Below, in pieces: positions 9,264-64,000 of a stretch of DNA of 64,000 bases. Source of the DNA: a virus; IMG/VR virus record IMGVR_UViG_3300042564_002372, positions 45,828 to 109,827 of that record. One strand, given 5' to 3'. The translations under genes were made by a program, and so were the position numbers. The notes beneath the pieces are model-generated. The model had not been told where the DNA came from. It did no database searches and saw only the letters and a program-made list of their open reading frames with translations. Within the stretch, counting starts at the first letter, position 1. Each line of letters opens with the position of its first letter.

Positions 9264-12200
9264 TCAGTTGTATTTATCCAGCCAGTTATCCTTGTCTGGG
9301 TTATTTGTAAAGTTAAGTAATTGATTTAATTTTTTCATTGGTTGGGCATCTAATTGATTGATTCCCAATTCAGCAACTGGATACTCTGTCACCTTCTTTC
9401 CTTTGAATTTATAATTCTTTCCTGGCTTCATAAGCTTTGTATCTCCTGCATCAGAAACACCAACAACATCGTAAGGAACTCCTTCCATAGTGATGTAGTT
9501 GCTATCAATCTCTGTCACTTTTCCAGGATGTGCCCATTGACCTCTGTTGTCTTTTATCACTCCTCCTTTTCTTTTCTTTGGAAGATAGAATCTATCATAT
9601 ATTTCAATAGGGTTCATCATTCTATTCAAAGCAGGATTATTAAAATCATACTTATCATAAATAGAAACATAAGAACCATCAGGACTCTTCTGTAATGTAA
9701 ATCTTTGTAAAGGATCTATATCTCCAAATTTTACATTCTTATCTGTGTCTGCATTTTCAGAATACCACTTACTATCTAAGATTGGTAACAAACCATTCAT
9801 TTCCATTTTCTCACCAGGTTTTAAATCCTTAGTGAGGTTCATCAACTCATAATCATCAATAACATCTCTGATAGTGTAATACTTAGCATCAGGATCTTTT
9901 GCTACAGAAGGTTTGTACTTTGACTCTTTTAGATATTGTCTTTCGCCAGGGATGTTCATTGCTGTTGCCCAGAACTCTTCAGCCAAGTGTGGTTTACCAC
10001 TTTTAGTTTTCAATGGTTCAGATTCATTACCCATTAAATAATTATATGCATATACAGGAAGTTTTAATGCATTAGGATAATCTACTGGCCTAACAGTTTT
10101 ATACACCTCTGTATTACTTAAAGGTTTTAACGCATTTAATAAACTAAGAGCCTTTGTTGTAACAGGATCAGATATTTCTTCAGATACAAACTTTGTTGCT
10201 TTTTTTGCAAAACTTTCTTCTCCACCATCCTGCATACTCTTTGGTTTCCAATCCAATCCATTCTGGTAGAATTTCATTTCTCCACCATTCTGTTTTTTAG
10301 GAACTTCATTCTTTGACTCTTCTGATTTTTCTTTAGCTTTTTTATGCATGTAGCTAGAACCACCTATTATTCCAGCTCCTGCAACGCCAGCTCCTTTAAA
10401 GTATTTGTTATTTTGAGCATTATTCCAATCTTTCAAAACATCCATTTGCTTTTCATCAGCAATCTTAGGTGTGCTAAGCATTACAGCATCAACTGCTTCA
10501 TTTTCTTTTGCTACACCTTTTGGAAAGCTTTGGACTTTCTCAATCAACTTATTATTGTTGTGATCAAAAAAGTTTCCAGCATCATCATAGTATATTCTAT
10601 TTTTTAAATCAAAAGGTGCTCCTCCAGTTAAAGAAGACACTTCAAATTCTTTTAATTTTTTTGGTAATCCTTTAATTGGTTGAAGAGGTTGTAAGTCCCA
10701 AGTGTCTGTGAAATCAACAAATTTTCTACCTTGTTCATCCACTCCTTTTGTAATCCATCCATTACCATGAACGGCACCAAAATTAAATTCTGGTCGAACT
10801 TCCATTGTCCCAAATGAAGACTTAGGATTATCAACTATAGATTGTAAATCTTCCTTTCCAATTCTAAAATCATTTATTGCTAATGTATTATCTGCATTTT
10901 TAGAAAATGTATCATAGTTAGGTTCTAATCCATTATATAATCTCCAAGCATCAAATCTATTTTTAGTAGCATGTGTCTTAGGTTTAAATTTTAAAAAATT
11001 TGGAGTTAGTAATTCTGCTGGGGAAGCTAAAACTGTAAAAGGATCATAGCCTATAGGTGTGATACTTCTATTTACAACTTCTCCTACTTGTTTTGTTAAA
11101 TTTTTACCAAGTTGTTTACCAACTAATTTAGATCCTCCCCCAATCAATGTTGGATCAATTGCTGATAGTCCAATGTTTGCAGCATTCTGTAAAAACCCTT
11201 CTGGATTTTCATAGCCTAGAACATCAGAAAGATCTCTTTGACTGCTTCCAAATTGTCCAAAGTTTGGATTTACATTACTGAAGTTATAAGGCTTACCTGT
11301 CAACATTGCAACAGTTTCTGCTAATGCTGCTGTAGGAACTTGCTCAAGCTTCATTAGGTTTTCAGGAATGCCATATAATGCTGCTGTTGTAAAGTCACGC
11401 AATGAGTCCATTGTGTAACTTCTAGGAGCTGTGACAGTTACTTCAGGTAAGTCAGGTAGAGTGAATGCACCATCATAGTATGTGCCCACTTGCCTGTTCC
11501 TATACATCTCTGGATAGCGGGGATCGTTTATAGATATTCTTTCTATGTCATCGCCCTTTTGCGCAGAAGGTATTCCTCCACCATTTTGAAATCCATCAAT
11601 TGGGTAGTATGATTTTCTACCATATACTTCACCAGTTTTTTCTCCAGACTTAGAGTTTATATAATTTGCAAGCTTCTTAGCAGTGGCAGCAGGACTCATG
11701 CTTTCAGTCTTTGTAGGTAGAGGTTGTGATTTAGGATATATTAATTCAACATCACCACTAGGATATACTCCTTCAATATCACTACTACTAATTACATTAG
11801 GTGAACTTGTTTGAGACATTACATCATAAGCTGTTTCTGCACCTAGTGCTCCAAGAAGACCTCTATTCCACAGCAATGAATTATTTGTCATTCCTTTCAC
11901 ATTACTAAAAAGCTCCAAATACCCTGTATCAGTTTTGTTTAAATTTATAGGGGAGTTGGCAGCACGTCTTGCTTGTTCTGTTAATGGATACAATGGATCG
12001 CCAGGTCTTAGCATCATTGCAGGTCTTCTAAAAGTGTTTGCTCCTAGGAATGTTGGTAAAGCAACACTAGCCAAATTAATTCCTGCATTTAAGTAATTAC
12101 CTCTATAAGCCTCATCAGCACCTTGTAATCCATCTACAATCATTCCAGCAATATTGCCAACTCTACCAACAGCTTGTGCAGTTGGATGAGGAATAAAGTT

Positions 12201-42735: not shown

Positions 42736-43075
42736 TTATCTTATTCATTAATATTTTACGCTTCAACAACATCTGATCAATATCATCATTCCACTTCTCC
42801 GTTTTAACATCACTATCAGAATTGGAAATCCTATCCCTAAAACTCCTAATCTTCTCATCTAAAACATCAAGCTTTTTCTGGGCAGCTCTATCATTCCATT
42901 TCAATGTACCAAACCCAGAAATCTCCACTGTCTTATTTTTCTGTAAAGCTGCCAATGTGCTGTCAAACTGATGTCGTATTATTTGATCAACAATATTAAC
43001 ATCCATGTTTAAGGACTCGGAGAGCTTTCTAACAAACCAATCCCTATGGGACATTGAATTAGGCTTTTCCTTCAT
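42662..43075 (-). CDS. HU/IHF-like DNA-binding protein
   Basis: LQKNKTVEISGFGTL matches the HU/IHF signature. Confidence 0.65.
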   Translation of the reverse strand: MKEKPNSMSHRDWFVRKLSESLNMDVNIVDQIIRHQFDSTLAALQKNKTVEISGFGTLKWNDRAAQKKLDVLDEKIRSFRDRISNSDSDVKTEKWNDDIDQMLLKRKILMNKINELNTDLRRLEKQSASRRKTKGTD

Positions 43076-43406
43076 GCAAAATCTTTATCTCTAATGTAAT
43101 GTCACTGGAGAAATCTAATGATATGAGGGGATTGACAACAATCTTTCCATCCTTCTTAAGAAGCAAGTTTCTTTTTTTGAGCTTAGACACCATGTTGTTC
43201 ACTGTAGCTCCTGTGGTTTCATAGGTTGAACAAAACTTCTCTCTATTACTTGGAACAGAAATACTTCCAGAAACAGCAATGAAAGACATCAGCTGAACTT
43301 CCCGTGTTGTAAGCATCAAATCGTTCAATGCAGAAAGAACAGAATAATACCTGTACGACACATCCGTGTCATTCTGTAATCCCTTCTTTAATCGTTGTAC
43401 AATCAT
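43059..43406 (-). CDS. Winged-HTH protein (RepL/MarR-like)
   Basis: LTTREVQL...TVNNMVSKLKKRNLL..DGKIVVNP; start reassigned to the ATG at 43406. Confidence 0.55.
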   Translation of the reverse strand: MIVQRLKKGLQNDTDVSYRYYSVLSALNDLMLTTREVQLMSFIAVSGSISVPSNREKFCSTYETTGATVNNMVSKLKKRNLLLKKDGKIVVNPLISLDFSSDITLEIKILHEGKA

Positions 43407-43424
43407 TTCCTTATTGGTTTCTAA

Positions 43425-43457
43425 CAAATATAAAACATCCTCCGTGAAAATAACAAA
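43425..43457 (-). promoter_or_regulatory. Bacteroidota sigma-A type promoter driving the structural arm
   Basis: TTTG-N21-TATATTTG, matching the -33/-7 consensus TTTG-N19-21-TAnnTTTG. Confidence 0.7.
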
Positions 43458-43459
43458 TT

Positions 43460-43645
43460 TTATTATTTCTGTTTTTGAATCAAGGCCCCACCCAGGTGAT
43501 GAGTTGTAAAGAAACCCCCCACCAAAATTTTCAAAATTTGGAAAAATGTTGTGTCAATGGGAGGGGAGGTTACTTCCAGTTGCAACCCCACGCAGAGTTG
43601 GGGTAGTCGAGGGACTCCCCCTTAAACACACTTAACCAATCAAAA
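43460..43645. other. Divergent-arm junction, GC-rich non-coding (possible genome end/packaging or origin region)
   Basis: Coding strand switches here; G/C runs contrast with the AT-rich surroundings. Confidence 0.4.
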
Positions 43646-43648
43646 ATC

Positions 43649-44026
43649 ATGTTACAACACTTAGCACCAACAAAATCAATTGAGGTAATTGGCACTCTTG
43701 CTGAAATCGTAGGAACTGGAGGTAAAGTATTCTACTCTCCAGGAAACTGGGATGGAGATAAGCGCATCTTCCTTGAACTAAGAACCGCTTCTGGACAGGA
43801 AGGTAGAATCTTCTGCTCACCTGCTGTGAGCAAGCACCTTCGTGAGAAGACCATGAAGCCATCTCAGTTGTTTGGAATGCCTGTCGCTCTTATCACTAGA
43901 GTTGATAAGACCAAAGGTTACACCGTTACTTTGCCTGGTTCTCAACTTGTGGAACTTGCAGTTCCAACTGAAGTTGAGACTTGGACTCAACCAGCAACAT
44001 TAGAAGAAGTAGAGAGGGTTTCATAA
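43649..44026 (+). CDS. First early protein, hypothetical (125 aa)
   Basis: A-rich leader, followed by a terminator-like hairpin. Confidence 0.7.
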   Translation: MLQHLAPTKSIEVIGTLAEIVGTGGKVFYSPGNWDGDKRIFLELRTASGQEGRIFCSPAVSKHLREKTMKPSQLFGMPVALITRVDKTKGYTVTLPGSQLVELAVPTEVETWTQPATLEEVERVS

Positions 44027-44042
44027 CCCTCTTTTCTTCTCT
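44001..44042 (+). terminator. Terminator-like hairpin
   Basis: AGAGGGTT-TCAT-AACCCTCT followed by TTTCTTCT. Confidence 0.6.
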
Positions 44043-44075
44043 ATATACAGGGTGGGAGTAAAAACGTTTGGGTGG

Positions 44076-44675
44076 GCTAGTTACACAGAGATTGTATCTG
44101 TGCAAATCAGACATATATTATAAATACAATGAAGGGTTCTACGAGGCCAAGCATGTGGTAATGCGTTGTAATATATATGGTGTGATCTGTGTAACTAGTT
44201 TATCCTTACTAAAGTACAACGAATGTAGGGTAATGTACAATTTAATAAAGTTTTACACGGGAAAACTAAAACTTCATGTTGTACTTTATCAAGAATTTGT
44301 TGAGTGAATAAGAGTAGGAGTGACACCACACACGTAATAATGACATGTTTTCGTAAGTGTCGTTTTTACTATTCACTATTTTATATAGCATTAACAAACA
44401 ATTGTATGTGGCCACGTAGTGCCTTAATCCATCCGTGATGCATGTGTAAGCATGTAGGATGGACATACAATTTCAATGCACCATTCTCACTTCCCAAGGG
44501 TGAGCAGTTGTAATAGATGAAGCGTCAGCAAAATGGGTCAATGCAGAAATAATTTCACAGCGACATAACCAATGGGTCATGCTGTAATTGTTTGCCTGTG
44601 ACATAATCTATTACAATTGAGTGCAGAGGGATTTGGAGGGTCAGATGCTCCCGAGCAGGTGCAAGGCCTGCATTT
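44076..44675 (+). ncRNA. Candidate large structured RNA / hairpin array
   Basis: Six consecutive stem-loop domains, most with 9-14 bp stems containing G-U pairs; no convincing ORF. Confidence 0.55.
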
Positions 44676-44704
44676 ATTATTTAATCATTTAAACGCACAA
44701 CAAC

Positions 44705-44884
44705 ATGTTAAAATCAATTTTAATTTTCTTGTTTCCTAAGACTATTGCTTCTATTAAGAAGGATAGTATTAATGAATATCTCTGTAATCATGAAGATCCA
44801 GAATTTGATCAAATGCAGGCTGATTATTATGAGATGATGAGTATTGAACATCAACAATGGCTAGAACAAGATGAAAACATTTAA
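44705..44884 (+). CDS. Hypothetical protein, 59 aa
   Basis: Manually translated MLKSILIFLFPKTIASIKK...QDENI; AAACGCAC leader. Confidence 0.55.
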   Translation: MLKSILIFLFPKTIASIKKDSINEYLCNHEDPEFDQMQADYYEMMSIEHQQWLEQDENI

Positions 44885-45161
44885 TGATTTAGTCTTTATA
44901 GATGAGATTATGTATGGCGACTTAAAATGGAGTCGCTCATACATGATATTTGATAATGGATATGGTATATCTGTTGTAAAAGGTCCTCATAGTTATGGAG
45001 GTAAATTAGGCTTATATGAAATTGCTGTCTTAGATAATGATGGCTACATCACTTATGAAACACCTATAACTGATGATGTAATAGGCTTTCTTAAGCCTGA
45101 AGATGTTAGTAAACACATGATTGAAATTCAAGAATTACCAATTGCACACAAAAACACATAA
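44871..45161 (+). CDS. Hypothetical phage protein
   Basis: FDNGYGISVV..SYGG..GLYEIAVL..TPITDDVIGFL, a recurrent phage early-protein pattern. Confidence 0.7.
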   Translation: MKTFNDLVFIDEIMYGDLKWSRSYMIFDNGYGISVVKGPHSYGGKLGLYEIAVLDNDGYITYETPITDDVIGFLKPEDVSKHMIEIQELPIAHKNT

Positions 45162-45166
45162 AACGA

Positions 45167-45472
45167 ATGAACACATTAAAAGTAGTTAGGGCTATAGCAG
45201 TGGGAACTGCTCTCCTTGCAGGAATTCTATCTGTTCTCATTATTATGTTTGCTGGAACAGCACTTGAGATGGGTGTAACAGATGAACAGTTCTTATTCAC
45301 TGTCATCATCTTTTTCATTTCCACATTATATTGGTTGGCTGTTGATGCTCTTATTAGAAGAGATGAGGCTGATACAGAAGCAATGAAGAAGATTCATCAA
45401 ACAACATTCAATCAGGCTGCTGTATTGATGATTCTTTCTATTATTGGAACACTTTCTCTGGTATTCTTATGA
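45167..45472 (+). CDS. Membrane protein (about 3 TM segments)
   Basis: Three hydrophobic stretches. Confidence 0.65.
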   Translation: MNTLKVVRAIAVGTALLAGILSVLIIMFAGTALEMGVTDEQFLFTVIIFFISTLYWLAVDALIRRDEADTEAMKKIHQTTFNQAAVLMILSIIGTLSLVFL

Positions 45473-45675
45473 AGTATGCCAGAGAGTGTTCTATTACAGG
45501 TGAAGGAATGAATGAGGGATGGGTGGGAGATGATGGATGTGTCTATTTTAAATATGAAAAAGATGCAAAGCAATGGTGCATAAGCAGAGGATATAGAGAT
45601 ATTGATGATGCTTATGTTGATGATGTAATTTATTACACAGAATGGGATGAGTTTGAACTAGACTTTGAAGAATAG
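45469..45675 (+). CDS. Small acidic hypothetical protein
   Basis: Coupled ORF, D/E-rich C-terminus. Confidence 0.6.
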   Translation: MKYARECSITGEGMNEGWVGDDGCVYFKYEKDAKQWCISRGYRDIDDAYVDDVIYYTEWDEFELDFEE

Positions 45676-45677
45676 CC

Positions 45678-45887
45678 ATGATTGTAGCAAGACAAAGTAT
45701 TATATCTGGTAAGGTTTATCAGATGGAATTGGATATCACTCAACAACAGTTGGATGATTTTGCTAATGATAAACTTGGATTGATTCAAGAAGCATTTCCT
45801 CATTTGTCTATTGATGAACGTGAATTCATCATATCTGGTATCCATCCAATAGAATGGAGAGAGTTATTTGGAGAATTAGAAGAATAA
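45678..45887 (+). CDS. Hypothetical phage protein
   Basis: LIQEAFPHLSIDEREFIISGI motif. Confidence 0.65.
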   Translation: MIVARQSIISGKVYQMELDITQQQLDDFANDKLGLIQEAFPHLSIDEREFIISGIHPIEWRELFGELEE

Positions 45888-45901
45888 AAAACAAAACGCA
45901 C

Positions 45902-46018
45902 ATGAAAAAATTAACTAAAAAAGAATTCAGTGAAAGAGTAGTATTCTATAGTCTACTATCAGCACTAGTCATCATGCTAATTGTATGGTGGATTGAGTTT
46001 ATTAAATACTTCCCATAA
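45902..46018 (+). CDS. Single-TM peptide, 38 aa
   Basis: MKKLTKKEFSERVVFYSLLSALVIMLIVWWIEFIKYFP; AAACGCAC-ATG leader. Confidence 0.5.
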   Translation: MKKLTKKEFSERVVFYSLLSALVIMLIVWWIEFIKYFP

Positions 46019-46131
46019 ATCATATTCTAATATGATTTGTGCGTCTGCTGAGCATCAGAATAAACTGCTCAATTATTATAGCATTAATTAAAATCAAAGC
46101 AAATAAACAAACAACTAAAGCAAAAACGCAC

Positions 46132-46407
46132 ATGAAAGCACACCAAACAATTGCAGATGTGTTGATGGACATCAATACGCCTGATGCAGCAAAGAAGTTC
46201 GTTGTGATTACAGATCACGAGAACACGTTTTACTTTTCCTATCCAGGAGAAGATGAGTTTAATCCTTTAAGAGGACAGGCTTTTCTTACACGCACATTTA
46301 TTCCTTTCGCAATTAGCGTGCATCAAGAAGTGGGATCTCATTTCGTTTACAAATGGGATACAATGAATGAAGTGGTTGATCATTTTGACTTACTATTTAA
46401 CTCTTGA
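46132..46407 (+). CDS. Hypothetical protein
   Basis: Start reassigned to the ATG after the AAACGCAC leader. Confidence 0.6.
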   Translation: MKAHQTIADVLMDINTPDAAKKFVVITDHENTFYFSYPGEDEFNPLRGQAFLTRTFIPFAISVHQEVGSHFVYKWDTMNEVVDHFDLLFNS

Positions 46408-46412
46408 TAGCC

Positions 46413-46676
46413 ATGAAAGTGAAGAATAAAGAACAACTCGACAAGTTTATCATTACAATGGTAAAACTCTATCCTACCAATCTCACTTATGCATTCAAGC
46501 GTGTGAGTGATATCACTGGGGTTAAACCTTTAGTTATATCAAATAGATGGTACACCAACATTAGACATCGTTCTGATGTAATTTACAGGATAGTTACAGA
46601 TGAGGTGGAAATTAAGAACACCAGAGTGATGAGGTCAGATCTGATTGAGAAACTTATGAAAATCTTTAGGATATGA
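46413..46676 (+). CDS. Hypothetical, possible HTH protein
   Basis: AFKRVSDITGVKPLVISNRWY resembles an HTH. Confidence 0.5.
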   Translation: MKVKNKEQLDKFIITMVKLYPTNLTYAFKRVSDITGVKPLVISNRWYTNIRHRSDVIYRIVTDEVEIKNTRVMRSDLIEKLMKIFRI

Positions 46677-46918
46677 AACCTCAACTAAAAGAACACATGA
46701 AAAATATGACAAGTTTTATTGCATTGATGCTCTCGTTTTACATATTTGTGTATTACATGATCACATTTGCAATGATAATTACATGGAGAACATTTGATCT
46801 CCATCCATCTCTTGGCTTTTTGGCTCATGTAATAGCTTCACTAGTGATCCTATTAACAATATACATGTATGAGCCACGTAAAGATAAAGATGATAAAACT
46901 CACAGAAGAAGAGATTGA
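46673..46918 (+). CDS. Membrane protein (2 TM)
   Basis: Two hydrophobic helices. Confidence 0.55.
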   Translation: MKPQLKEHMKNMTSFIALMLSFYIFVYYMITFAMIITWRTFDLHPSLGFLAHVIASLVILLTIYMYEPRKDKDDKTHRRRD

Positions 46919-47036
46919 GAACTTTAGAGCAATTGCTGACAAGTTCAATGTCAAATTTGATGTAAAACAAGTAAAAAACAATTATTATGTTACAGCCCCT
47001 GAGGATAAACTAATCCAATGGGGCTATTACGAATAA
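46890..47036 (+). CDS. Hypothetical protein, 48 aa
   Basis: Manually translated MIKLTEEEIENFRAIADKF...QWGYYE. Confidence 0.5.
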   Translation: MIKLTEEEIENFRAIADKFNVKFDVKQVKNNYYVTAPEDKLIQWGYYE

Positions 47037-47040
47037 AATT

Positions 47041-47184
47041 ATGAGCGCATTTACAGAGGAAGAAATAAACACTCTCATAGAATTGTGGCGTGATAAGCTT
47101 ACAATCAAAGAGATGGCATGGACAATGAAAAAGAAGCCTACACAAGTGTATTATCAGCTTAAGAAGCGTTCATTAGTAGGGTAA
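47041..47184 (+). CDS. Small HTH protein, 47 aa
   Basis: FTEEEINTLIELWRDKLTIKEMAWTMKKKPTQVYYQLKK, a GcrA/Myb-like HTH pattern. Confidence 0.55.
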   Translation: MSAFTEEEINTLIELWRDKLTIKEMAWTMKKKPTQVYYQLKKRSLVG

Positions 47185-47239
47185 AATAGATAGGGTTTGA
47201 TGTTAATCTAAGTCGCCAGTGCTTTCCAGTGGCAAATTT

Positions 47240-47376
47240 AGTCAGGTGGCGGAAAGTGTGCCCTGTTATTACGGGAAGTACATAGGAAGACGCTAATCAC
47301 GGAAACCTAGTGAGGTAGTGAACGCAAGTGAAAGATGTCTGCGGATATCATGCATGTTCGAATCATGCCCTGACTA
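47240..47376 (+). ncRNA. tRNA-like RNA 1 (137 nt, no anticodon loop)
   Basis: Acceptor AGTCAGG/CCTGACT, D-stem GCG/CGC, T-arm GCATG-TTCGAAT-CATGC; insertions in the D-loop and anticodon region; no CCA. Confidence 0.7.
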
Positions 47377-47392
47377 CTAAAAATTAAAAGTT

Positions 47393-47494
47393 ATGAATAA
47401 AGAAGAAATTAAAGAATGGATTGACAGATGGTCAAAACTAGAACCATCCCCTAAAAGGGATGCTATAATTAAGATTTGGTCTAGGCTTCTGTAA
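47393..47494 (+). CDS. 33-aa peptide between the two tRNA-like RNAs
   Basis: MNKEEIKEWIDRWSKLEPSPKRDAIIKIWSRLL with A-rich leader. Confidence 0.45.
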   Translation: MNKEEIKEWIDRWSKLEPSPKRDAIIKIWSRLL

Positions 47495-47500
47495 TTAAAT

Positions 47501-47609
47501 AGTCAGGTGGCGGAATTGGTAACGCACATACAACGAAGGGTGTGTACAGCCCAACCATAAAGAGAGTTGTATGGTGGTATAAATGTGGGTTCGAATCCTA
47601 CTCTGACTA
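47501..47609 (+). ncRNA. tRNA-like RNA 2 (109 nt, enlarged anticodon arm)
   Basis: AGTCAGG/TCTGACT acceptor, GCGGAATTGGTAACGC D-arm, CATACAAC/GTTGTATG stem around a 31-nt insert, GTGGG-TTCGAAT-CCTAC T-arm. Confidence 0.75.
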
Positions 47610-47628
47610 CACACTAAAAACAAAACAC

Positions 47629-47790
47629 ATGGAACTACTAATTAGCATACTAATTGTCACCAGCATTTCTACATTCATTGCTGTATTTTGGATAAAAGGC
47701 ATAAACGACATGCATGAAAATTATCCTGATTACAAAGGAGAAGATTTGTTTGATGAAGATTTGAATAAAAATAAACAAACAAACACATGA
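47629..47790 (+). CDS. Single-TM small protein
   Basis: MELLISILIVTSISTFIAVFWIKGI...; start moved downstream of the tRNA-like element. Confidence 0.55.
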   Translation: MELLISILIVTSISTFIAVFWIKGINDMHENYPDYKGEDLFDEDLNKNKQTNT

Positions 47791-47993
47791 AACAGACAGC
47801 AGTAGATTGGTTGTTCAACAGACTATGGGAAACACCAAAAGATAAGTTTGCATGGCAAAGTATTTTAAAAGAAGCCAAAGAAAGAGAAAAGATGCAAATT
47901 GAGAGAGCAAATTTAAACGGTGCCTCTGCTACTCTTTTGCACAAATTTGAATTAGGAAAGTATTATAACGAAACATACGGAGAAGATGCCTGA
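47787..47993 (+). CDS. Hypothetical phage protein
   Basis: MKQTAVDWL...AKEREKMQI...YYNETYG, a pattern recurrent in Bacteroidota phages. Confidence 0.65.
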   Translation: MKQTAVDWLFNRLWETPKDKFAWQSILKEAKEREKMQIERANLNGASATLLHKFELGKYYNETYGEDA

Positions 47994-48183
47994 CATAACA
48001 ATGTGCCCAGGGACAAATTGTCCCCAGAAAGAAAATTGCTACAGATTTACAGCAAAACCTAGTGACTACCAATCTTATTTTATGGAGTCACCCATCAAAG
48101 ATGGTAAGTGTGATTACTATTGGGGAGAGAACGCAGAGAGAATCTGGAATCAACTCAACAATATTGTAAAAGGAAAAGAATAA
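47986..48183 (+). CDS. Small Cys-containing protein
   Basis: DITMCPGTNCPQKENCYRF...CDYYW. Confidence 0.65.
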   Translation: MPDITMCPGTNCPQKENCYRFTAKPSDYQSYFMESPIKDGKCDYYWGENAERIWNQLNNIVKGKE

Positions 48184-48217
48184 ATGTCCAGTTTTAATCG
48201 CTGGACATTTTTATTTT
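48182..48217 (+). terminator. Intrinsic terminator
   Basis: AAATGTCCAG...CTGGACATTT followed by T-runs. Confidence 0.7.
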
Positions 48218-48223
48218 AGCACT

Positions 48224-48448
48224 ATGGAAATCTATTTAGGAAAACAAGCGAAAAGTCTATTCTATGGTAGAGATGTTCCTATTAATTCAATAGGAGTGTT
48301 TCAAACTATAGGAGGAGACTGGTTGTATTGGTTCAATGATAATTGGACGTATGATACAGGGGTGGCTGACACAGAAGTGGAGGCAATGGAAACAGCAAAA
48401 AAGAATTTTAGACCGTACAAAAAACCAAACAATGATGAAACTATTTAA
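48224..48448 (+). CDS. Hypothetical protein
   Basis: 74-aa ORF in the operon. Confidence 0.6.
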   Translation: MEIYLGKQAKSLFYGRDVPINSIGVFQTIGGDWLYWFNDNWTYDTGVADTEVEAMETAKKNFRPYKKPNNDETI

Positions 48449-48593
48449 AGCAAACAAAGGAATTAAAAGAACAGGAGATTTAGCACCAAGAGGTGTAAAA
48501 AGCACAATTAGAGGAAACTACGGTTTCAATGAAGTAATGGAACATATATTTAACGAAGCAAGAAAACCAGATCCATCATGGAAAAAGAAATGA
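48435..48593 (+). CDS. Small basic hypothetical protein
   Basis: Start reassigned to MKLFKANK. Confidence 0.45.
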   Translation: MKLFKANKGIKRTGDLAPRGVKSTIRGNYGFNEVMEHIFNEARKPDPSWKKK

Positions 48594-48817
48594 ACACCTA
48601 CAAGCATTGGGTAAATCTACATCTAGATAAGGACAATGCAGACAAATTCTTTGCTAATATGGCAAGTCAAAGACCAGTGTTAGATCCTTCAGGAGAAGTG
48701 TTAGAAGATGAATTTATCTATTCAGCATTTCTTTGGGAAAAATCAAACGAGGGTCATGACTATTGGCAAAATATTCAAGAAAAACTAGAGCAAGATAATG
48801 GGTGGGTCGTTATTTGA
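48578..48817 (+). CDS. Hypothetical protein
   Basis: SAFLWEKSNEGHDYW motif. Confidence 0.6.
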   Translation: MEKEMNTYKHWVNLHLDKDNADKFFANMASQRPVLDPSGEVLEDEFIYSAFLWEKSNEGHDYWQNIQEKLEQDNGWVVI

Positions 48818-49316
48818 TATGAGACATCTCATGTGGTTAGAGGCTAACTTAAAGGTTAGCTTCTACCAACCTGAGAAGCTTGAGCAGGGTATGATCTTTA
48901 TGAATAGTTTATACCCAGGAACAGACAGAGAGTTTGTTGAGCTATGGTTGCTTGAAGAAGACATCATTGAAGAAGAGTATGACAACTTTATAAACAAGAA
49001 TGGTTTTCCTGTTGAGATGATGGTTACACTAGAGATGAAAAATCCTGATGAGCCTGATTTAATTGTGGCATATCCGCCAGAAATAGGATGGATTCATCAA
49101 AATGACGATTCAATCAGAGAGTTTGATGTTGATGATGCCAATTGGATTATTCAGAATAATAATGGTGTGGTGCATGTATTGATTGATGAAGAAGCTTATG
49201 ATCAAGATGGTACAATCTACACTATCACAGAAGACCAAGAAGTGATTATGAAATACCAATTTGATGATGATATATATGACGATGATTATGATTGGGATGA
49301 ATACTTGGAAGAATAA
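48798..49316 (+). CDS. Highly acidic hypothetical protein
   Basis: D/E-rich, very few K/R. Confidence 0.65.
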   Translation: MGGSLFDMRHLMWLEANLKVSFYQPEKLEQGMIFMNSLYPGTDREFVELWLLEEDIIEEEYDNFINKNGFPVEMMVTLEMKNPDEPDLIVAYPPEIGWIHQNDDSIREFDVDDANWIIQNNNGVVHVLIDEEAYDQDGTIYTITEDQEVIMKYQFDDDIYDDDYDWDEYLEE

Positions 49317-49355
49317 CTAAAATTATGTATTTTACTAACGAAAAAAATTAAAACG

Positions 49356-49964
49356 ATGGCAGTAGAAATTTATTTAGAACCTGAACTAGAAGAGATGGTT
49401 GGTTCTGTAGAAGTAACAGAAGAGTGGAAGCAGCTTGCTGAAGAACTTGGTATGGAAGGTCAGTTGAAACTGATTACACCAAAGTCAGGAGAAGAAAGTG
49501 ATAAGAATCCTTCTCCATACATCCACATGAACGCTAAAGCAGAGCGTGTATTTGCAATCCTTTGTCCAGAAGTGGTTGATTACAAGAAGTATGACAAGTC
49601 TACTATCCCAAGAGATGTGCTCAGAGAAATTGCTATGGCTGAAAGACTCAAGTTCTTTGATAAGATTTGTATTTGGTATGATGATGCTTCTCCAGATCCT
49701 CTTGTAGTTGGTTACATCAAAGTGGGAAACTATGAATATGTAAAGCACATGATTGCTAGATTTGGTGATGAACTTCTTCCATTTGAAGAATTAGAACGTA
49801 AGTCAATCAACAGATTAAAGAAGAGAATGACAGATAAGCTGAAGTCTGCTCTATCTAGTATTGATTCTACAGTGGATGAGTTCTTCAATCCTACCAGATA
49901 CAATTCAGAAGTTTTGAGAATTGAGTTCAATGGTGTCACTTACAACCATAGATGTGGTAGTTAA
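49356..49964 (+). CDS. Hypothetical protein
   Basis: 202 aa coupled to the polymerase gene; WYDDASPDPLVVG motif. Confidence 0.7.
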   Translation: MAVEIYLEPELEEMVGSVEVTEEWKQLAEELGMEGQLKLITPKSGEESDKNPSPYIHMNAKAERVFAILCPEVVDYKKYDKSTIPRDVLREIAMAERLKFFDKICIWYDDASPDPLVVGYIKVGNYEYVKHMIARFGDELLPFEELERKSINRLKKRMTDKLKSALSSIDSTVDEFFNPTRYNSEVLRIEFNGVTYNHRCGS

Positions 49965-51931
49965 TGAATGTCTTAATCTATGACATAGAAACTCTAAAAG
50001 AAATGTTTCTCGTGGGGATTTATATTCCTCACGAGAATACATATCATGAGTTTGAGGTGAGCAAAAGCAAATATGATCTGGATAGGTTTGTAGAGTTCTC
50101 AGAGAAGTATAAAAACTTCTATTGGGTGGGCTATAACAATCTAAGATTTGACTGCCAAGTTGTTGAATGGATCTTGAGAAAGTGCCATGACTGGGGAGAA
50201 AAATCTAATCTAGAAGTAGCAGCCATGATTGCTCAGAAAGCGCAGGACGTTATTCATGATGCTAACTATGATGTGTTTGCTGAATATCGTGAAGAAGATC
50301 TTACACTCAAGCAGATTGATTTGTTCAAGATACATCACTTTGACAATAAGAATAGACGTGTTAGTCTAAAAAGACTAGAGTTTGAAATGGATCTTGAGAA
50401 CATTGAAGAGATGCCAATTCATCACACAAAGGTGGGAATGACTCTAGATGATAGAAAGCTCACACGTCAATATTGTAAGAATGATGTTATGGCCACTTAT
50501 GAATTCTATAAGGTGACCATAGGTGAAACAGATCATCCGTTGTACAAGGGTAATGATCAGATACAGCTTAGACTAGATATAGAGAAAGAGTTTGACATTC
50601 CATGTATAAACTATTCAGATAGTAAGATTGGTGATGAGATCATCAAGAAATACTATTGTGAAGAGAAGAGAATGGATGTTAAGACACTTCCTAGAAAAGG
50701 TCACTTTAGAAAATACATCTTCATCAGTCAATGTATTGCTCCGTATGTACAGTTCAAGACTGTCCAGCTCACTGAGTTTCTTAAGAAGATTAAGAAGATG
50801 CGTCTAGAGCTTACAGATGATTTCAAAGAACACATACACTTTTATGACAATGTGTATTCGTTCATGAAGGGTGGATTGCACACAGAAAACAAACCAGAAG
50901 TGTTTGAAGAGGATGAAGACCATTTGATCATTGACTGGGACGTTTCTAGCTACTATCCTGCCATCATCATCAACAACAAGCAGTATCCATATCATTTAGG
51001 AAAAGAGTTTCTTACAGGCTATAAAAAGATGTATGAGAAGCGTCTCGAACTAAAGCCTTTTGCAAAGAAGGATAAGAAGATTAAGGGTATTGTTGGTGCG
51101 TTGAAGCTTGCTGTAAACTCTGTGTATGGTAAATCTAGTGACATGAATAGTTGGATATATGATAGACAACTTACTATGTTTACAACCATCACAGGAGAAT
51201 TGTCCTTGATGATGCTTATTGAAGCGTATGAAACTAAAGACATACGTGTCATATCAGCAAACACTGACGGTGTTACAATTTACATCAACAAAAGCAAACT
51301 TGCTGAGATGGATAAGATTAATGCCTGGTGGTGTAAGATTACAGGATATGAACTTGAGAGAGCTGATTACAAGAAGATTATATTCTCAACAGTTAATGAC
51401 TACCTAGCAATCAAAACAGATGGAGAAATTAAAAAGAAAGGGGATTTTCTCACGGATTTTGAACTTCATAAGAACAAATCCGCCAGAATTGTCCCTCTTG
51501 CTCTTGAGCGTTACTTTGTTGATGGTGTTCCTATTGCTGAAAGCATTACTCTTCATAAGAATCCTTTTGATTTTTGCATAAGACAGAAATCAACAAGTGA
51601 TTTTCATTATGAAGGATATAGAAAAGGCATGGAACCATCCATTTACAATAAGCTTATTCGTTATTATGTAACAAGTGGTAGCGATGGTGAGAAACTATTG
51701 AAAATTAAGAACCAAGACTCACAGTCAACTGCACCAAACAGTTCACAAGTGGAGGCTGGTGATTGGTTATGCAAGGTGGTGAACTATCTTCCTGCAAGTA
51801 CAGATGTCAAATCAATGGATATCAACTATGACTATTACATTGATAAGGCTGAAAGTCTTGTGCTTAAGATTGTTACAAAAGGTAAGAAGCGAAAAGTAGA
51901 AAGAATCCCTAACCAAATTTCTTTATTTTAA
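49964..51931 (+). CDS. polB: DNA polymerase, family B
   Basis: Exo I YDIET, Exo II GYNNLRFD, Exo III YCKNDV; Pol motifs DVSSYYP, KLAVNSVYGK, ANTDG. Confidence 0.92.
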   Translation: MNVLIYDIETLKEMFLVGIYIPHENTYHEFEVSKSKYDLDRFVEFSEKYKNFYWVGYNNLRFDCQVVEWILRKCHDWGEKSNLEVAAMIAQKAQDVIHDANYDVFAEYREEDLTLKQIDLFKIHHFDNKNRRVSLKRLEFEMDLENIEEMPIHHTKVGMTLDDRKLTRQYCKNDVMATYEFYKVTIGETDHPLYKGNDQIQLRLDIEKEFDIPCINYSDSKIGDEIIKKYYCEEKRMDVKTLPRKGHFRKYIFISQCIAPYVQFKTVQLTEFLKKIKKMRLELTDDFKEHIHFYDNVYSFMKGGLHTENKPEVFEEDEDHLIIDWDVSSYYPAIIINNKQYPYHLGKEFLTGYKKMYEKRLELKPFAKKDKKIKGIVGALKLAVNSVYGKSSDMNSWIYDRQLTMFTTITGELSLMMLIEAYETKDIRVISANTDGVTIYINKSKLAEMDKINAWWCKITGYELERADYKKIIFSTVNDYLAIKTDGEIKKKGDFLTDFELHKNKSARIVPLALERYFVDGVPIAESITLHKNPFDFCIRQKSTSDFHYEGYRKGMEPSIYNKLIRYYVTSGSDGEKLLKIKNQDSQSTAPNSSQVEAGDWLCKVVNYLPASTDVKSMDINYDYYIDKAESLVLKIVTKGKKRKVERIPNQISLF

Positions 51932-61613: not shown

Positions 61614-63919
61614 TACTAGAAAAACAAAAAGAAGCAATGGTTTTCGCTGATGGCGAAATAAACGAATCAATTGGAATGTCTTTAGACTTGGATTCTGCTC
61701 AGATTTTGATGCAGATGTTAAGTAAGAATCTCTATTCAGATTCAATAGGCTCAACTATCAGAGAGTGTGCAAGTAATGCACTAGATAGTCACAGAAGAGC
61801 TGGTGTGGAAGATCCAATTGTTGTAAGTTTTAAACTAGATGACAATAACAACTATGTTTTCTCTGTAGAGGATTTTGGTATTGGTCTAGATGCTGATGAT
61901 GTGAAGAATATCATTAGTAAGTATGGTAAGTCTACCAAACGTAACTCTGATACAGAACTAGGTATGATGGGTCTTGGCTTTAAGGCCCCTCTTGCTTACA
62001 CATCTAGTTTCTATTTCATCTGTCGTAAAGATGGCATGGAACGTAAGTATATGATGTACGAAGGTGAAGACACAAACACTATCGATCTTCTGTATGAAAG
62101 ACCTACAGAAGAGAGAAATGGTGTTAAGGTGATTGTTCCAGTTAAATGGAGTGATAGAAGTAGCTTCTACATTAAGATTCAGGAGCAACTCGCTTATTTT
62201 GATAGTGTGTATTTCGATGTTACAGCAAATGGGAATAGTGTTAATAACAAGTTCACCATCTATCGTGGTGAGCACTTTCAGTATTCTGAAATGTCAAAGG
62301 ATGATTACCTCCACATTTGCTTGGACAACGTGTATTATCCATTAGACTTTAACAAGCTTGGTATTTCTAATTTAGAGTTTCCTGTAGCATTGAGATTTAG
62401 TTTGACTGATGGAATATTTCCAACACCAAACAGAGAAGCTATCAGGTATACACAAGAAGCTAAAGACATTATTCTCAAAAGATTGGGACAAATGTCTGAC
62501 TTCTTCATTGAGAAATACAATCGTGAGATGCAAAACTGCTCTACATTTGATCAGGTGATAGAGTATTACACCAGCAAGAAAAGAAGTGTAGAGATTGTTC
62601 CTGGCAAGTCTTTGAACGTTGGTTACCTATCTATCTTCAGCGATATAGTGATGAATGAGCCTAAAATGGAAGGTGTAAAACATCTTGATCTAAGAAAGCT
62701 TGTTGATAAGAGTGAATACATTCTAAATGAGTATGCTGTAACATACACTCTCAACAGAGGAAAGTTCAAGGAGGTGAAGAGTGGAAGCTGGGAATCGAAT
62801 GTTAGTAGAAACAATGTTATGGGTAACAACACATACATGTATTCTTCTAGGATCTCAGAGTTGAAGAAGGCGTATCTAAGAACTCATTTACAGAATGGTA
62901 CATTCAACAATTACTATTTTGTGAAGAAGATAGCAACATTCTCTTTGTTCAATAAGACTGCTGCTTCTAATTATATGAAAAGCTTGAAGCGTGATAACTA
63001 CTATCAACTGCTAGAGCTTTCTAAAATTAAGAAAGAACACTGGAGAGAAGCAATCATAGAGTTTCAGGGTATTGTGAATTCTATGATTTCTGGATTCAAG
63101 AACCTTGATGATGTGGTTGTTCCAGACAGCTTTATTCAGTCTAGAAAGCAAATTAGTGGTAGAACAGGAGTGAATAGACGTGAGAAACTAGCTGGTGACA
63201 TCATCGTCAAAGAAGCAAGACAGCTAGAAAGGTTTGTTGATGGTAAGAACTGTAAGTTTGTTCCTGACACATGGTCTTTGAAGGATATACCAAAGAAGAA
63301 AACTCTAATAGTTTATGGTCATCATGACGATAGCCTAGATCTTGATAAGTTGTATAGCATCACTTGTGGTAAAATGAACATCACTATAATTTCGCTATCA
63401 ACAAAAGAAATAAAGGTGCTTGAGAAACTAGAGTTGAACAATGTAATGTCTTATTCAAAATTTATGGAAGGTAAAAGTAAACCATTCAAGAAGCTTGTTA
63501 CTGCCTATCTAATCAATAAGCTAATACTTAATCAATCGTATGTTTTCAGAAAATCTGATTATTTGAAAAGCATATCCACTGAATTATCAGATAAAATGGA
63601 TTTGCTCGAGAAATATAGAAACACAAACTATAGAGATGGGTCTACTGAGATTTACAAGGCTATGATTGATTTAGCAGAAGAGAATAAACTTTTCGATTAC
63701 AGTATATACCACGAGTATATACGAATGAAGGAAACACTCGAAAGGTTGTATTTTCTAAATGCTATTATGGGATCACTCAATTTCTATTCTTACAACAGTG
63801 GTATGTCTCCAGGTGTTGAAAGAGCTATTGTAGACTTGATGAAGTATCACAAATTCAAAGTGAATCTTGATCACTACACTCGTCTTGAAGAAGATAAATT
63901 AGAAGAACAATTTTGTTAA
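61610..63919 (+). CDS. rIIA: rIIA-like protein (GHKL ATPase N-terminus)
   Basis: NLYSD..IRECASNALDSH, VEDFGIGL, STKRNS..GMMGLGFKAP, PTPNREAI. Confidence 0.8.
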   Translation: MILEKQKEAMVFADGEINESIGMSLDLDSAQILMQMLSKNLYSDSIGSTIRECASNALDSHRRAGVEDPIVVSFKLDDNNNYVFSVEDFGIGLDADDVKNIISKYGKSTKRNSDTELGMMGLGFKAPLAYTSSFYFICRKDGMERKYMMYEGEDTNTIDLLYERPTEERNGVKVIVPVKWSDRSSFYIKIQEQLAYFDSVYFDVTANGNSVNNKFTIYRGEHFQYSEMSKDDYLHICLDNVYYPLDFNKLGISNLEFPVALRFSLTDGIFPTPNREAIRYTQEAKDIILKRLGQMSDFFIEKYNREMQNCSTFDQVIEYYTSKKRSVEIVPGKSLNVGYLSIFSDIVMNEPKMEGVKHLDLRKLVDKSEYILNEYAVTYTLNRGKFKEVKSGSWESNVSRNNVMGNNTYMYSSRISELKKAYLRTHLQNGTFNNYYFVKKIATFSLFNKTAASNYMKSLKRDNYYQLLELSKIKKEHWREAIIEFQGIVNSMISGFKNLDDVVVPDSFIQSRKQISGRTGVNRREKLAGDIIVKEARQLERFVDGKNCKFVPDTWSLKDIPKKKTLIVYGHHDDSLDLDKLYSITCGKMNITIISLSTKEIKVLEKLELNNVMSYSKFMEGKSKPFKKLVTAYLINKLILNQSYVFRKSDYLKSISTELSDKMDLLEKYRNTNYRDGSTEIYKAMIDLAEENKLFDYSIYHEYIRMKETLERLYFLNAIMGSLNFYSYNSGMSPGVERAIVDLMKYHKFKVNLDHYTRLEEDKLEEQFC

Positions 63920-63940
63920 TTAATTAAAAATCAATAACTT

Positions 63941-63966
63941 AAGGGAGGCTTAGTCCTCCCTTTTTC
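63941..63966 (+). terminator. Intrinsic terminator
   Basis: AAGGGAGG-CTTAG-TCCTCCCTT followed by T-run. Confidence 0.7.
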
Positions 63967-63987
63967 ATTTAAAACCAAAACAAAACT

Positions 63988-64000
63988 ATGTCAATTTTCA
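63988..64000 (+). CDS. Start of next gene (possibly rIIB), truncated
   Basis: ATG after an A-rich leader; identity guessed only from rIIA/rIIB synteny. Confidence 0.3.

Follow-up and report, generated by a model that had tools for sequence, protein, structure and literature searches.

Two Non-decoding RNAs Built on a Leucine tRNA Frame in a Phage Genome and a Family of Phage Elements with Different Inserts

Introduction

What does a phage without tRNA genes gain from two RNAs that resemble a leucine transfer RNA (tRNA) at both ends and hold unrelated sequences in the middle? The question is raised by the IMG/VR virus record IMGVR_UViG_3300042564_002372, of which positions 45,828 to 109,827 were analyzed; this whole stretch of 64,000 nucleotides (nt) is referred to here as the window. 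Two segments of its + strand, copy 1 and copy 2, had been described in an original prediction, made from the letters alone, as a pair of tRNA-scaffold RNAs with identical ends, different payloads, and no anticodon, which could serve as punctuation signals around an enclosed gene, as stable scaffolds, or as decoys. The description held in all its details, and the interpretation in part. Both copies were found to keep a leucine tRNA frame around their different centers, the helices are maintained by compensatory changes in relatives, and the centers are replaced by others in closely related phages. On balance, the two copies are probably carrier RNAs that would be matured like tRNAs and would act through their inserts.

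The Shared Leucine tRNA Frame

The features of the two copies are as follows.

47240..47376, + strand: copy 1, a tRNA-Leu-framed RNA of 137 nt from A1 to A73, with C74 at 47377 (sequence and folds)
47240..47246, + strand: 5' strand of the copy 1 acceptor stem, paired with 47369-47375 in seven Watson-Crick pairs
47256..47283, + strand: D-loop insert of copy 1, a hairpin of 28 nt that lies between A15/A16 and the equivalent of G18G19 at 47285-47286 (fold)
47294..47351, + strand: copy 1 central insert (payload A), 58 nt, which replaces the anticodon arm (fold)
47352..47368, + strand: copy 1 T arm, GCATG-TTCGAAT-CATGC (sequence)
47501..47609, + strand: copy 2, a tRNA-Leu-framed RNA of 109 nt from A1 to A73, with C74 at 47610 (Rfam and homologs)
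47510..47525, + strand: copy 2 D arm, GCG-GAATTGGTAA-CGC, of the tRNA-Leu type (sequence)
47527..47573, + strand: copy 2 central insert (fold and covariation)
47574..47584, + strand: "variable region" of copy 2, GTGGTATAAAT, 11 nt without self-pairing (invariant in 17 homologs)
47585..47601, + strand: copy 2 T arm, GTGGG-TTCGAAT-CCTAC (sequence and covariation)

The ends of the two copies are identical, as had been claimed: each starts with T followed by AGTCAGGTGGCGGAA (at 47239 and 47500) and finishes with CTGACTAC (47370-47377 and 47603-47610). The acceptor stem, the D stem of the leucine type, and the TTCGAAT T loop were all found intact. The acceptor strands are AGTCAGG/CCTGACT in copy 1 and AGTCAGG/TCTGACT, with one G-U pair, in copy 2. 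Both copies have U at position -1, U8, G9, a U ahead of the T stem, A73, and C74, together with a 3-base-pair (bp) D stem (GCG/CGC) that closes a leucine-type loop with A14, A15, G18G19, and A20a, and a 5-bp T stem that closes a UUCGAAU loop. The T stems differ between the copies and yet both pair (GCATG/CATGC in copy 1 and GTGGG/CCTAC in copy 2). The observation that CCA is encoded by neither copy was correct; the bases that follow A73 are CTA in copy 1 and CAC in copy 2.

Structure and Covariation of Copy 2

The center of copy 2 consists of an 8-bp stem (47527-47534 with 47566-47573) around 31 nt, and the sequence and the fold agree on the stem and insert described earlier. Within the 31 nt there are a GA(A) linker, an inner hairpin (47538-47552), and a conserved single strand (47553-47565). 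The Rfam tRNA model (RF00005) matched copy 2 with a score of 40.1 bits (gathering score of 29; E value of 5e-5 for the whole window) and skipped a 48-nt center.

Homologs of copy 2 were collected by exact-pattern scans of IMG/VR and by BLAST of a phage collection. These gave 16 further distinct versions on contigs of many sizes and gene contents (20-120 kilobases, kb), including the complete 60.8-kb podovirus MW202828, which was also the only match when positions 47150-47700 were compared by blastn with the 50,697 phage records of the collection. In the alignment of the 17 distinct copy-2 sequences (alignment A1), 97.3% of the predicted pair cells hold standard pairs. Both sides have changed at 14 of the 31 pairs, a result that 0 of 500 column shuffles and no slid register came close to. 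The covarying positions include six of the seven acceptor pairs (pairs 2-7) and four of the five T-stem pairs, and A1-U72 and A73 are invariant. The D stem covaries from G-C to A-U in L012 (which stands for five identical loci) and L156. The central stem covaries in its outer 5 bp, where four sequences have U-A for C-G, and mismatches are tolerated in its inner 3 bp; the inner hairpin covaries from GGG/CCC to GAG/CUC. With these stems varying around it, the 11-nt strand GUGGUAUAAAU is unchanged in all 17 distinct homologs. Positions 47554-47558 and 47574-47578 could form a 5-bp pseudoknot, with which the alignment is compatible and in which the changes are one-sided only. No protein neighbor of the insert is common to more than 4 of the 17 contexts and, because there is no constant protein neighbor, the center of copy 2 is probably an autonomous unit that acts in trans.

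Just 3' of the copy-2-type element of MW202828 there is a second tRNA-like unit of roughly 67 nt (L001:634-700), which is unannotated in the record. It has acceptor-like ends, a CCCC/GGGG D arm, a GATGG-TTCGAGT-CCATC T arm, and about 11 nt at the place of the anticodon arm. The protein from an 11.6-kb gene is annotated beside the tRNA-like element of this phage.

Structure and Relatives of Copy 1

Copy 1 is matched by neither ARAGORN nor the Rfam tRNA model. Its center folds into a branched arm (47297-47320) and a variable-arm-like 6-bp hairpin (47334-47349) with a UGCG loop, followed by the equivalent of U48 at 47351; the hairpin of about 28 nt in the D loop and the branched anticodon/variable region that had been proposed were thus recovered in the sequence and in the fold. 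A single homolog was found in IMG/VR (L344). It lies in a different gene context, its 57-nt center is 100% identical, its D-loop hairpin is nearly the same, and its T stem has changed in a compensatory manner from GCAUG/CAUGC to GCAGG/CCUGU. Five metagenome matches that were considered as further relatives were found to be chance matches. L156 combines the same 54-nt 5' part of copy 1, including the D-loop hairpin, with another central insert, and the D-loop hairpin therefore behaves as a separate module.

The proposal that the structure is under selection is borne out by the compensatory changes in the relatives of both copies. On the evidence of these alignments, the two copies are real RNA genes that are selected as RNA structures.

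The Copies Do Not Decode

Neither the window nor the genome as a whole gave an ARAGORN call of a tRNA or a transfer-messenger RNA (tmRNA), and the view that the copies are not decoding tRNAs was upheld. Compared with a canonical tRNA, both copies have the acceptor stem, the discriminator, the D arm, and the T arm and lack an anticodon stem with a 7-nt loop and U33. There is no 5-bp stem at the anticodon position of copy 1. If the outer 5 bp of the central stem of copy 2 are taken as the anticodon stem, they close a loop of 37 nt, and all eight contiguous excisions of 30 nt leave A at position 33. An ARAGORN call in intron mode proved to be an artefact in which the 5' half of copy 1 was fused to the 3' half of copy 2.

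It is extremely unlikely that the copies are decoys for tRNA-cleaving defense nucleases or intron-containing tRNAs that decode after splicing. Phage tRNAs are able to counter anticodon nucleases. The oversized tRNAs of Lak megaphages, moreover, have been read as intron-containing (PMC6784885). Neither copy, however, presents a target that resembles an anticodon loop, and the inserts are too diverse for any one nuclease; a role as decoys for anticodon nucleases must be regarded as unlikely. Splicing to normal tRNAs, named in the original prediction as an outcome that would overturn it, is excluded by the sequence: no excision restores a 7-nt loop with U33, 31 nt is too short for a group I intron, and copy 1 is without a 5-bp anticodon stem. 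No intron family was reported by Rfam in the window even at an E value of up to 10.

Other known RNA classes were considered and rejected. A tmRNA was found by neither ARAGORN nor Rfam in the window, and pair 3-70 of the copies is U-A rather than the alanine-type G3-U70; both programs do detect the genuine phage tmRNAs in L007 and L118. The Rfam matches in the window are to tRNA only, either at the gathering score or at E values of up to 10, which sets aside Y RNA/YrlA, skipping-rope, DUF2693-FD, and salivarius-1.

A Family of Framed Elements in Other Phages

The frame was defined for wider searches as AGUCAGG-UG-GCG at the 5' side, a leucine D loop, a T arm of the ACAGG or GUGGG type, and CCUGACU-A-C at the 3' side; both copies have it. 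The first 15 nt of the frame occur in at least 120 IMG/VR contigs. The loci that were fetched hold 217 unique framed elements, of which 134 are too long for tRNAs, and the centers of these 134 fall into 103 unrelated clusters. Arrays of four to six framed elements occur in several phages. Often these arrays have clusters of ordinary tRNAs as neighbors, and in two cases a phage tmRNA. The combination of identical ends with different payloads, first noted for this pair, is therefore correct and general, with about 100 unrelated classes of insert elsewhere and different inserts at the same site in sister phages.

In a set of 129 unique long elements, U8 is universal (100%), and the frequencies at the other positions are 81% for U at -1, 91% for U48, 85% for A73, and 95% for C74. 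Genuine tRNA-Leu genes on the same phage contigs likewise end with A73-C74 and do not encode CCA. The framed elements therefore show the same maturation signals as their real tRNA neighbors. In a search for cultured phages with the frame, blastn against the 50,697 phage records gave generic T-arm matches only; the one match that was inspected, from Enterococcus phage EA1, proved to be a normal tRNA-Gln. No account of exchangeable inserts in a constant frame was found in the literature that was searched or in the 2023 catalogue of viral structured RNAs (PMC10690425).

Several other features were seen in the same loci. A recurrent, frame-free spacer lies between framed elements (L156:1780-1888; L008, + strand, about 3490-3530 and 3610-3700; and L353, downstream of the first element). 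It starts with GTGTTGTTCCCTTGAGAAAGGA and ends with ACAACACAGAGGACTTCTCATCCTCAA, has the potential for long-range pairing and a GAGGA/TCCTC hairpin, and has no match in Rfam; it may be another structured RNA. The tmRNA genes beside arrays are at L007:3181-3529 (91.9 bits with Rfam) and L118:5724-6218 (68.5 bits), and the tag of the former is predicted by ARAGORN to have 25 residues ending in AA. An AGTCAGG-framed unit of 74 nt with a center of normal length lies at L007:3877-3950. ARAGORN classifies it as tRNA-Ala(CGC), yet G3-U70 is missing and position 37 is U; instead of a functional tRNA, it may be one of the framed elements, with an insert that imitates an anticodon arm.

Replacement of Inserts at This Site in Sister Phages

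Eighty loci that encode relatives of the DNA polymerase of this phage were fetched, many of them short. A conserved hairpin lies 6 nt upstream of copy 1.

47215..47233, + strand: hairpin with a GCCA..TGGC stem and a CTTTC loop, 6 nt upstream of copy 1

This hairpin and the gene upstream of it are shared by 9 of the 80 loci (84-94% nucleotide identity), and sister phages with DNA polymerases that are 91-97% identical have different contents 3' of the hairpin.

Window: copy 1, an open reading frame (ORF) of 33 codons, and copy 2
L156: the opening 54 nt of copy 1 without change, joined to a different center and T arm; an unrelated spacer; a copy-2-type element
L142: two other centers around the same ORF (97.5% identical)
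L147, L148, L149, L214, and L219: one element, with the center found in L156 and yet another D arm
L158: the center found in L156 with a hybrid T arm (L158:3005-3110; ACAGG...CCUAC, 3 pairs only)
L155: no element

In the five loci with one element, the next gene, directly after the element, is the one found after copy 2 in the window. As these loci read, and as the hybrids show, centers are added, removed, and exchanged by recombination within the constant frame. The D-loop inserts, the centers, and the T arms each assort separately. None of the nine close relatives lacks the hairpin itself. Even L155, the one without an element, has it, with a compensatory change from C-G to T-A. Judged by this pattern, the hairpin is part of the upstream unit and separate from copy 1; it may correspond to a processing site or to the 3' end of the transcript from upstream.

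We consider it very unlikely that the elements are decaying pseudo-tRNAs or selfish repeats that are spread by recombination and have no function as RNA. Scars do exist, namely the hybrid T arm of L158 and the acceptor remnants and truncated 5' frames of L356, L358, and L362, and elements are absent from many relatives. Decay, however, would destroy the helices, whereas 14 pairs of copy 2 show changes on both sides and 97% of the pairs hold. Nor does it account for the invariant single strand of 11 nt inside copy 2, or for a copy-1 insert that is identical in the unrelated context of L344 beside a T stem with compensatory changes. Decay in relatives had also been listed beforehand as an outcome that would speak against function; in relatives, the elements are either kept with compensatory changes or wholly replaced, and L158, a hybrid with a weakened T stem, is the sole case that resembles decay.

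Compatibility with Leucylation

[quoted passage not shown] The enzyme relies on A73, A15-U48, G18G19, A20a, and the tertiary pairs between the D loop and the T loop. Neither the anticodon nor the long variable arm has a crucial part in identity for leucine, truncated variants of tRNA-Leu are still charged, and the anticodon arm is essential for editing by LeuRS and dispensable for aminoacylation. Both copies carry every one of these determinants. At the level of sequence, then, the frame keeps what E. coli LeuRS needs, and the part that is replaced is what LeuRS ignores. Because the conserved frame coincides with the requirements of the E. coli enzyme, charging of both copies with leucine is plausible.

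It could be proposed on these grounds that the frame is itself the functional part, the copies being charged, non-decoding RNAs that act as a sink for LeuRS or EF-Tu or donate leucine outside translation, with inserts that do no more than tune the effect. The retention of A73, U8, A14, A15-U48, G18G19, A20a, and the UUCGAAU T loop in both copies is in keeping with such a role, as are the charging of truncated tRNA-Leu by LeuRS with an anticodon arm needed only for editing (PMC9976931) and the invariance of A1-U72 and A73 in the copy-2 family, where the rest of the acceptor stem covaries. We nevertheless find the proposal improbable. About 100 unrelated and individually conserved inserts are hard to explain by the frame alone, about 15% of the members have G, C, or U at position 73, and one element would give a phage the same effect.

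The Enclosed 33-Residue Micro-protein

The ORF that had been noticed between the two copies was confirmed.

47393..47494, + strand: 33-amino-acid ORF, a member of a conserved Trp-rich micro-protein family

A HMMER search over 1.8 billion cluster representatives gave 24 relatives at E values of up to 1e-3 with 52-84% identity. They share the pattern M.KEEIK.WIDRWS.LKPSP.RDMVIKIWS, in which E5, W13, and L16 are invariant (alignment A2). An AlphaFold model of the protein is a two-helix hairpin with a mean predicted local distance difference test (pLDDT) score of 93.7. Going by this conservation, the ORF represents a real micro-protein family.

The micro-protein gene was located in 55 IMG/VR loci (L351-L405). 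AGTCAGG elements lie no more than 1.2 kb from the ORF in 26 of these, and none was found in the other 29; in 18 of the 55 an element is directly adjacent (within 150 nt). Downstream elements start 5-12 nt past the stop codon, and upstream elements, if present, end about 15-20 nt before the ATG; the spacing in the window has the same geometry. The protein could be a partner of the framed RNAs or a frequent passenger in their arrays. Two further arrangements, both recombination scars, were noted among these loci. In L358 and L362 a bare acceptor hairpin, AGTCAGG-TGGCAATTGGT-CCTGACTA, lies upstream of the micro-ORF, and in L356 and L368 a truncated 5' frame is fused to the leader of the ORF.

The tight spacing bears on the suggestion that the frames are punctuation, existing mainly so that cuts by RNase P and the 3' tRNA nucleases free small messenger RNAs (mRNAs), with the inserts being incidental. 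The original punctuation idea gained some support: the enclosed ORF is a genuine gene for a conserved micro-protein and is often tightly flanked by elements, as shown by the 18 of 55 loci with an element within 150 nt and the matching geometry of the window. It is not a full explanation, however. Inserts that are conserved with compensatory changes across unrelated phages are needless for a cutting signal, the arrays of L003 and L008 run back to back with no ORF between the elements, sister phages have a single element and no enclosed ORF, and the micro-protein gene occurs with no element in 29 of the 55 loci. Punctuation as the main purpose of the frames is, in our judgment, unlikely.

Genome and Locus Context

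The record, from an uncultured phage, is 109,827 bp in length, with the window as its final 64 kb, and has a G+C content of 36.8%. About 163 bp are repeated at both ends of the record (1-163 and 109665-109827 of the genome, the latter at about 63838-64000 of the window) with one mismatch, at position 36. Because of this repeat, the genome is probably complete at about 109,664 bp, though its class in the collection is linear without end repeats. Genes for several giant proteins were recognized in it, as were those for a portal of the P22 type, a DnaB-like helicase, and a DNA polymerase. Positions 1-28152 of the window, on the minus strand, hold a run of very large ORFs of 4125 (with a start upstream of the window), 896, 973, 1433, 1897, and 1615 amino acids, which resemble the giant proteins of crAss-like or related podoviruses.

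Copies 1 and 2 are located about 2.4 kb upstream of the gene for the polymerase, within a group of small ORFs that share their + strand. Apart from a few chance matches in AT-rich sequence, a scan of the genome for a T arm with a matching acceptor stem returned exactly two convincing elements, namely the two copies. A scan of positions 43000-50000 for sigma-70 promoters and terminators gave nothing informative near the two copies. The best antisense match is at 10891-10903 of the genome, outside the window, where there is a 13-nt perfect complement to positions 47551-47563 of the copy-2 single strand, inside a + strand ORF of 189 amino acids; about 0.3-1 such matches are expected by chance.

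A 15-mer scan of 596 Gb of bacterial genomes gave mostly chance matches, with real elements in 4 of 120 loci. Two of these four are on contigs of metagenome-assembled genomes labeled Sediminibacterium and Flavobacterium, and these two labels hint at hosts among the Bacteroidota.

Comparison with Known RNAs

The closest parallels among characterized phages are in T5 and T4. RNA1 and RNA2 of T5 (AY543070) are annotated as misc_RNA, "tRNA-like stable RNA with unknown functions", and, like the two copies, are small phage RNAs in which acceptor-like ends and a T arm surround a center without an anticodon. RNA1 (144 nt) has the same leucine-type D arm, TGCCGGAATTGGTAGACGG against TGGCGGAATTGGTAGACGC in the family described here, with a compensatory swap in the stem, and matches the Rfam tRNA model from end to end with 24 bits; the T arm of RNA2 is GCAGGTTCGAATCCTGT. 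Unlike the copies, RNA1 has a U1-U72 mismatch, U73, and, as annotated, extended ends. The T5 RNAs lie within a tRNA cluster, whereas the phage of the window has no tRNA genes, and swapping of inserts, as seen in the framed family, is not described for T5. The blastn search with 47150-47700 revealed no similarity to T5-like phages. Species 1 RNA (rnaC) and species 2 RNA (rnaD) of T4 (AF158101) are likewise stable small RNAs encoded beside tRNA genes. The former (139 nt) finishes, as the copies do, with a canonical T arm and a closing helix that resembles an acceptor stem, but both T4 RNAs lack the leucine-type D arm and the AGUCAGG frame, and rnaD has no clear tRNA features.

With class II tRNA-Leu (RF00005) the copies share the acceptor stem, a 3-bp D stem with an GAAUUGGUA(G)A loop, A73, and the UUCGAAU T loop, and with the genuine tRNA-Leu of related phage contigs a 3' end that has C74 only. 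They differ from class II tRNA-Leu in the lack of an anticodon loop and in having A1-U72 instead of the usual G1-C72. Copy 2, in addition, has no variable-arm hairpin, and copy 1 has a 28-nt hairpin in the D loop.

In the TMERs of murine gammaherpesvirus 68 (MHV68), and in RNAs of the mascRNA type, a tRNA-like, non-aminoacylated processing module is linked to another functional RNA. These differ from the copies in their eukaryotic host and enzymes and in that the cargo is downstream of the tRNA-like unit rather than inside it. In the approach of Ponchon and Dardel, a foreign RNA placed in a tRNA scaffold is reportedly processed and stabilized by the cell like a tRNA. The engineered E. coli scaffold for the expression of recombinant RNA (see PMC3753655) carries a structured foreign RNA in place of the anticodon arm, which is the architecture found here; the scaffold is man-made, whereas the elements reported here are natural, diverse, and based on tRNA-Leu. 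The Lak megaphages, likened here by their published description, also have oversized tRNA-like genes that cannot be classified by bacterial tRNA finders, and their inserts are identical across cohorts and variably present between genomes (PMC6784885). Unlike the copies, the Lak genes are read as decoding tRNAs with introns, for example Tyr(GTA) and Thr(TGT) (PMC6784885).

Proposed Function

We favor, with moderate confidence, the reading that copies 1 and 2 are stable, non-decoding carrier RNAs that are built on a leucine tRNA frame and processed like tRNAs, with the insert as the effector. The structure, its selection, the inability to decode, and the recurrence and replacement of inserts are direct observations. 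From these we infer a course of events that covers transcription, processing, stability, charging, and a target. Both copies would be transcribed on the + strand together with the surrounding small early genes. The host tRNA machinery would then excise them, with RNase P cutting at A1 and a 3' endo- or exonuclease trimming after A73/C74, followed by the addition of CCA, and the products would accumulate as stable, L-shaped RNAs. The frame would supply processing, stability, and possibly leucylation, and the insert would be a specific effector that acts in trans by binding a host or phage factor. As a by-product, cuts at both elements would release the 33-codon mRNA with a 16-nt leader. Because the inserts differ between near-identical phages, the function would be accessory, most likely in host takeover or counter-defense.

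Several points weigh against this reading. About 15% of the family has no A73, so charging is not universal. Elements were seen in only 8 of the 80 polymerase-related loci and are thus dispensable, although many of those loci are short. Rfam reported no match for the centers, either in 17 array-type loci, where only tRNA and tmRNA were reported, or in the window. The guide, decoy, and synthetase-decoy roles of the original prediction gained no support. The search for complementarity that had been proposed at the outset returned chance-level results: no significant match to either RNA was obtained in the phage's own genome, where the count of complementary 11-mers (with the RNAs' own reverse strand subtracted) was no higher than for shuffled sequences, and no target was found. 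The one argument for a role in counter-defense is the variation in presence and absence between relatives. The frame, finally, could be kept constant through recombination alone, with no function that is specific to it.

A bolder version of the carrier reading is possible, and we put it forward tentatively. The elements would constitute a natural "tRNA scaffold" display, in which one leucine tRNA frame, through which host enzymes excise, CCA-tail, stabilize, and perhaps leucylate the RNA, presents a large library of horizontally exchanged, aptamer-like inserts, each of which neutralizes or hijacks a specific host factor such as a defense protein. If so, the "stable RNAs" of T4 and T5 would be members of a widespread class of RNA-based effectors for the manipulation of hosts, and the 33-residue two-helix protein could be a partner of the RNAs of the display system.

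For decades T4 and T5 have been known to encode tRNA-like stable RNAs to which no function has been assigned, and a modular system of the same kind is seen here in a phage that has no tRNA genes. The window adds a single site at which nature has provided a series with different inserts, and a micro-protein that recurs as a neighbor. The sister phages, with two elements, one, none, or swapped inserts, are a ready natural genetic series for the study of function. If the inserts are effectors, they would represent a new layer of RNA-based interaction between phage and host and a natural counterpart of the engineered tRNA scaffold.

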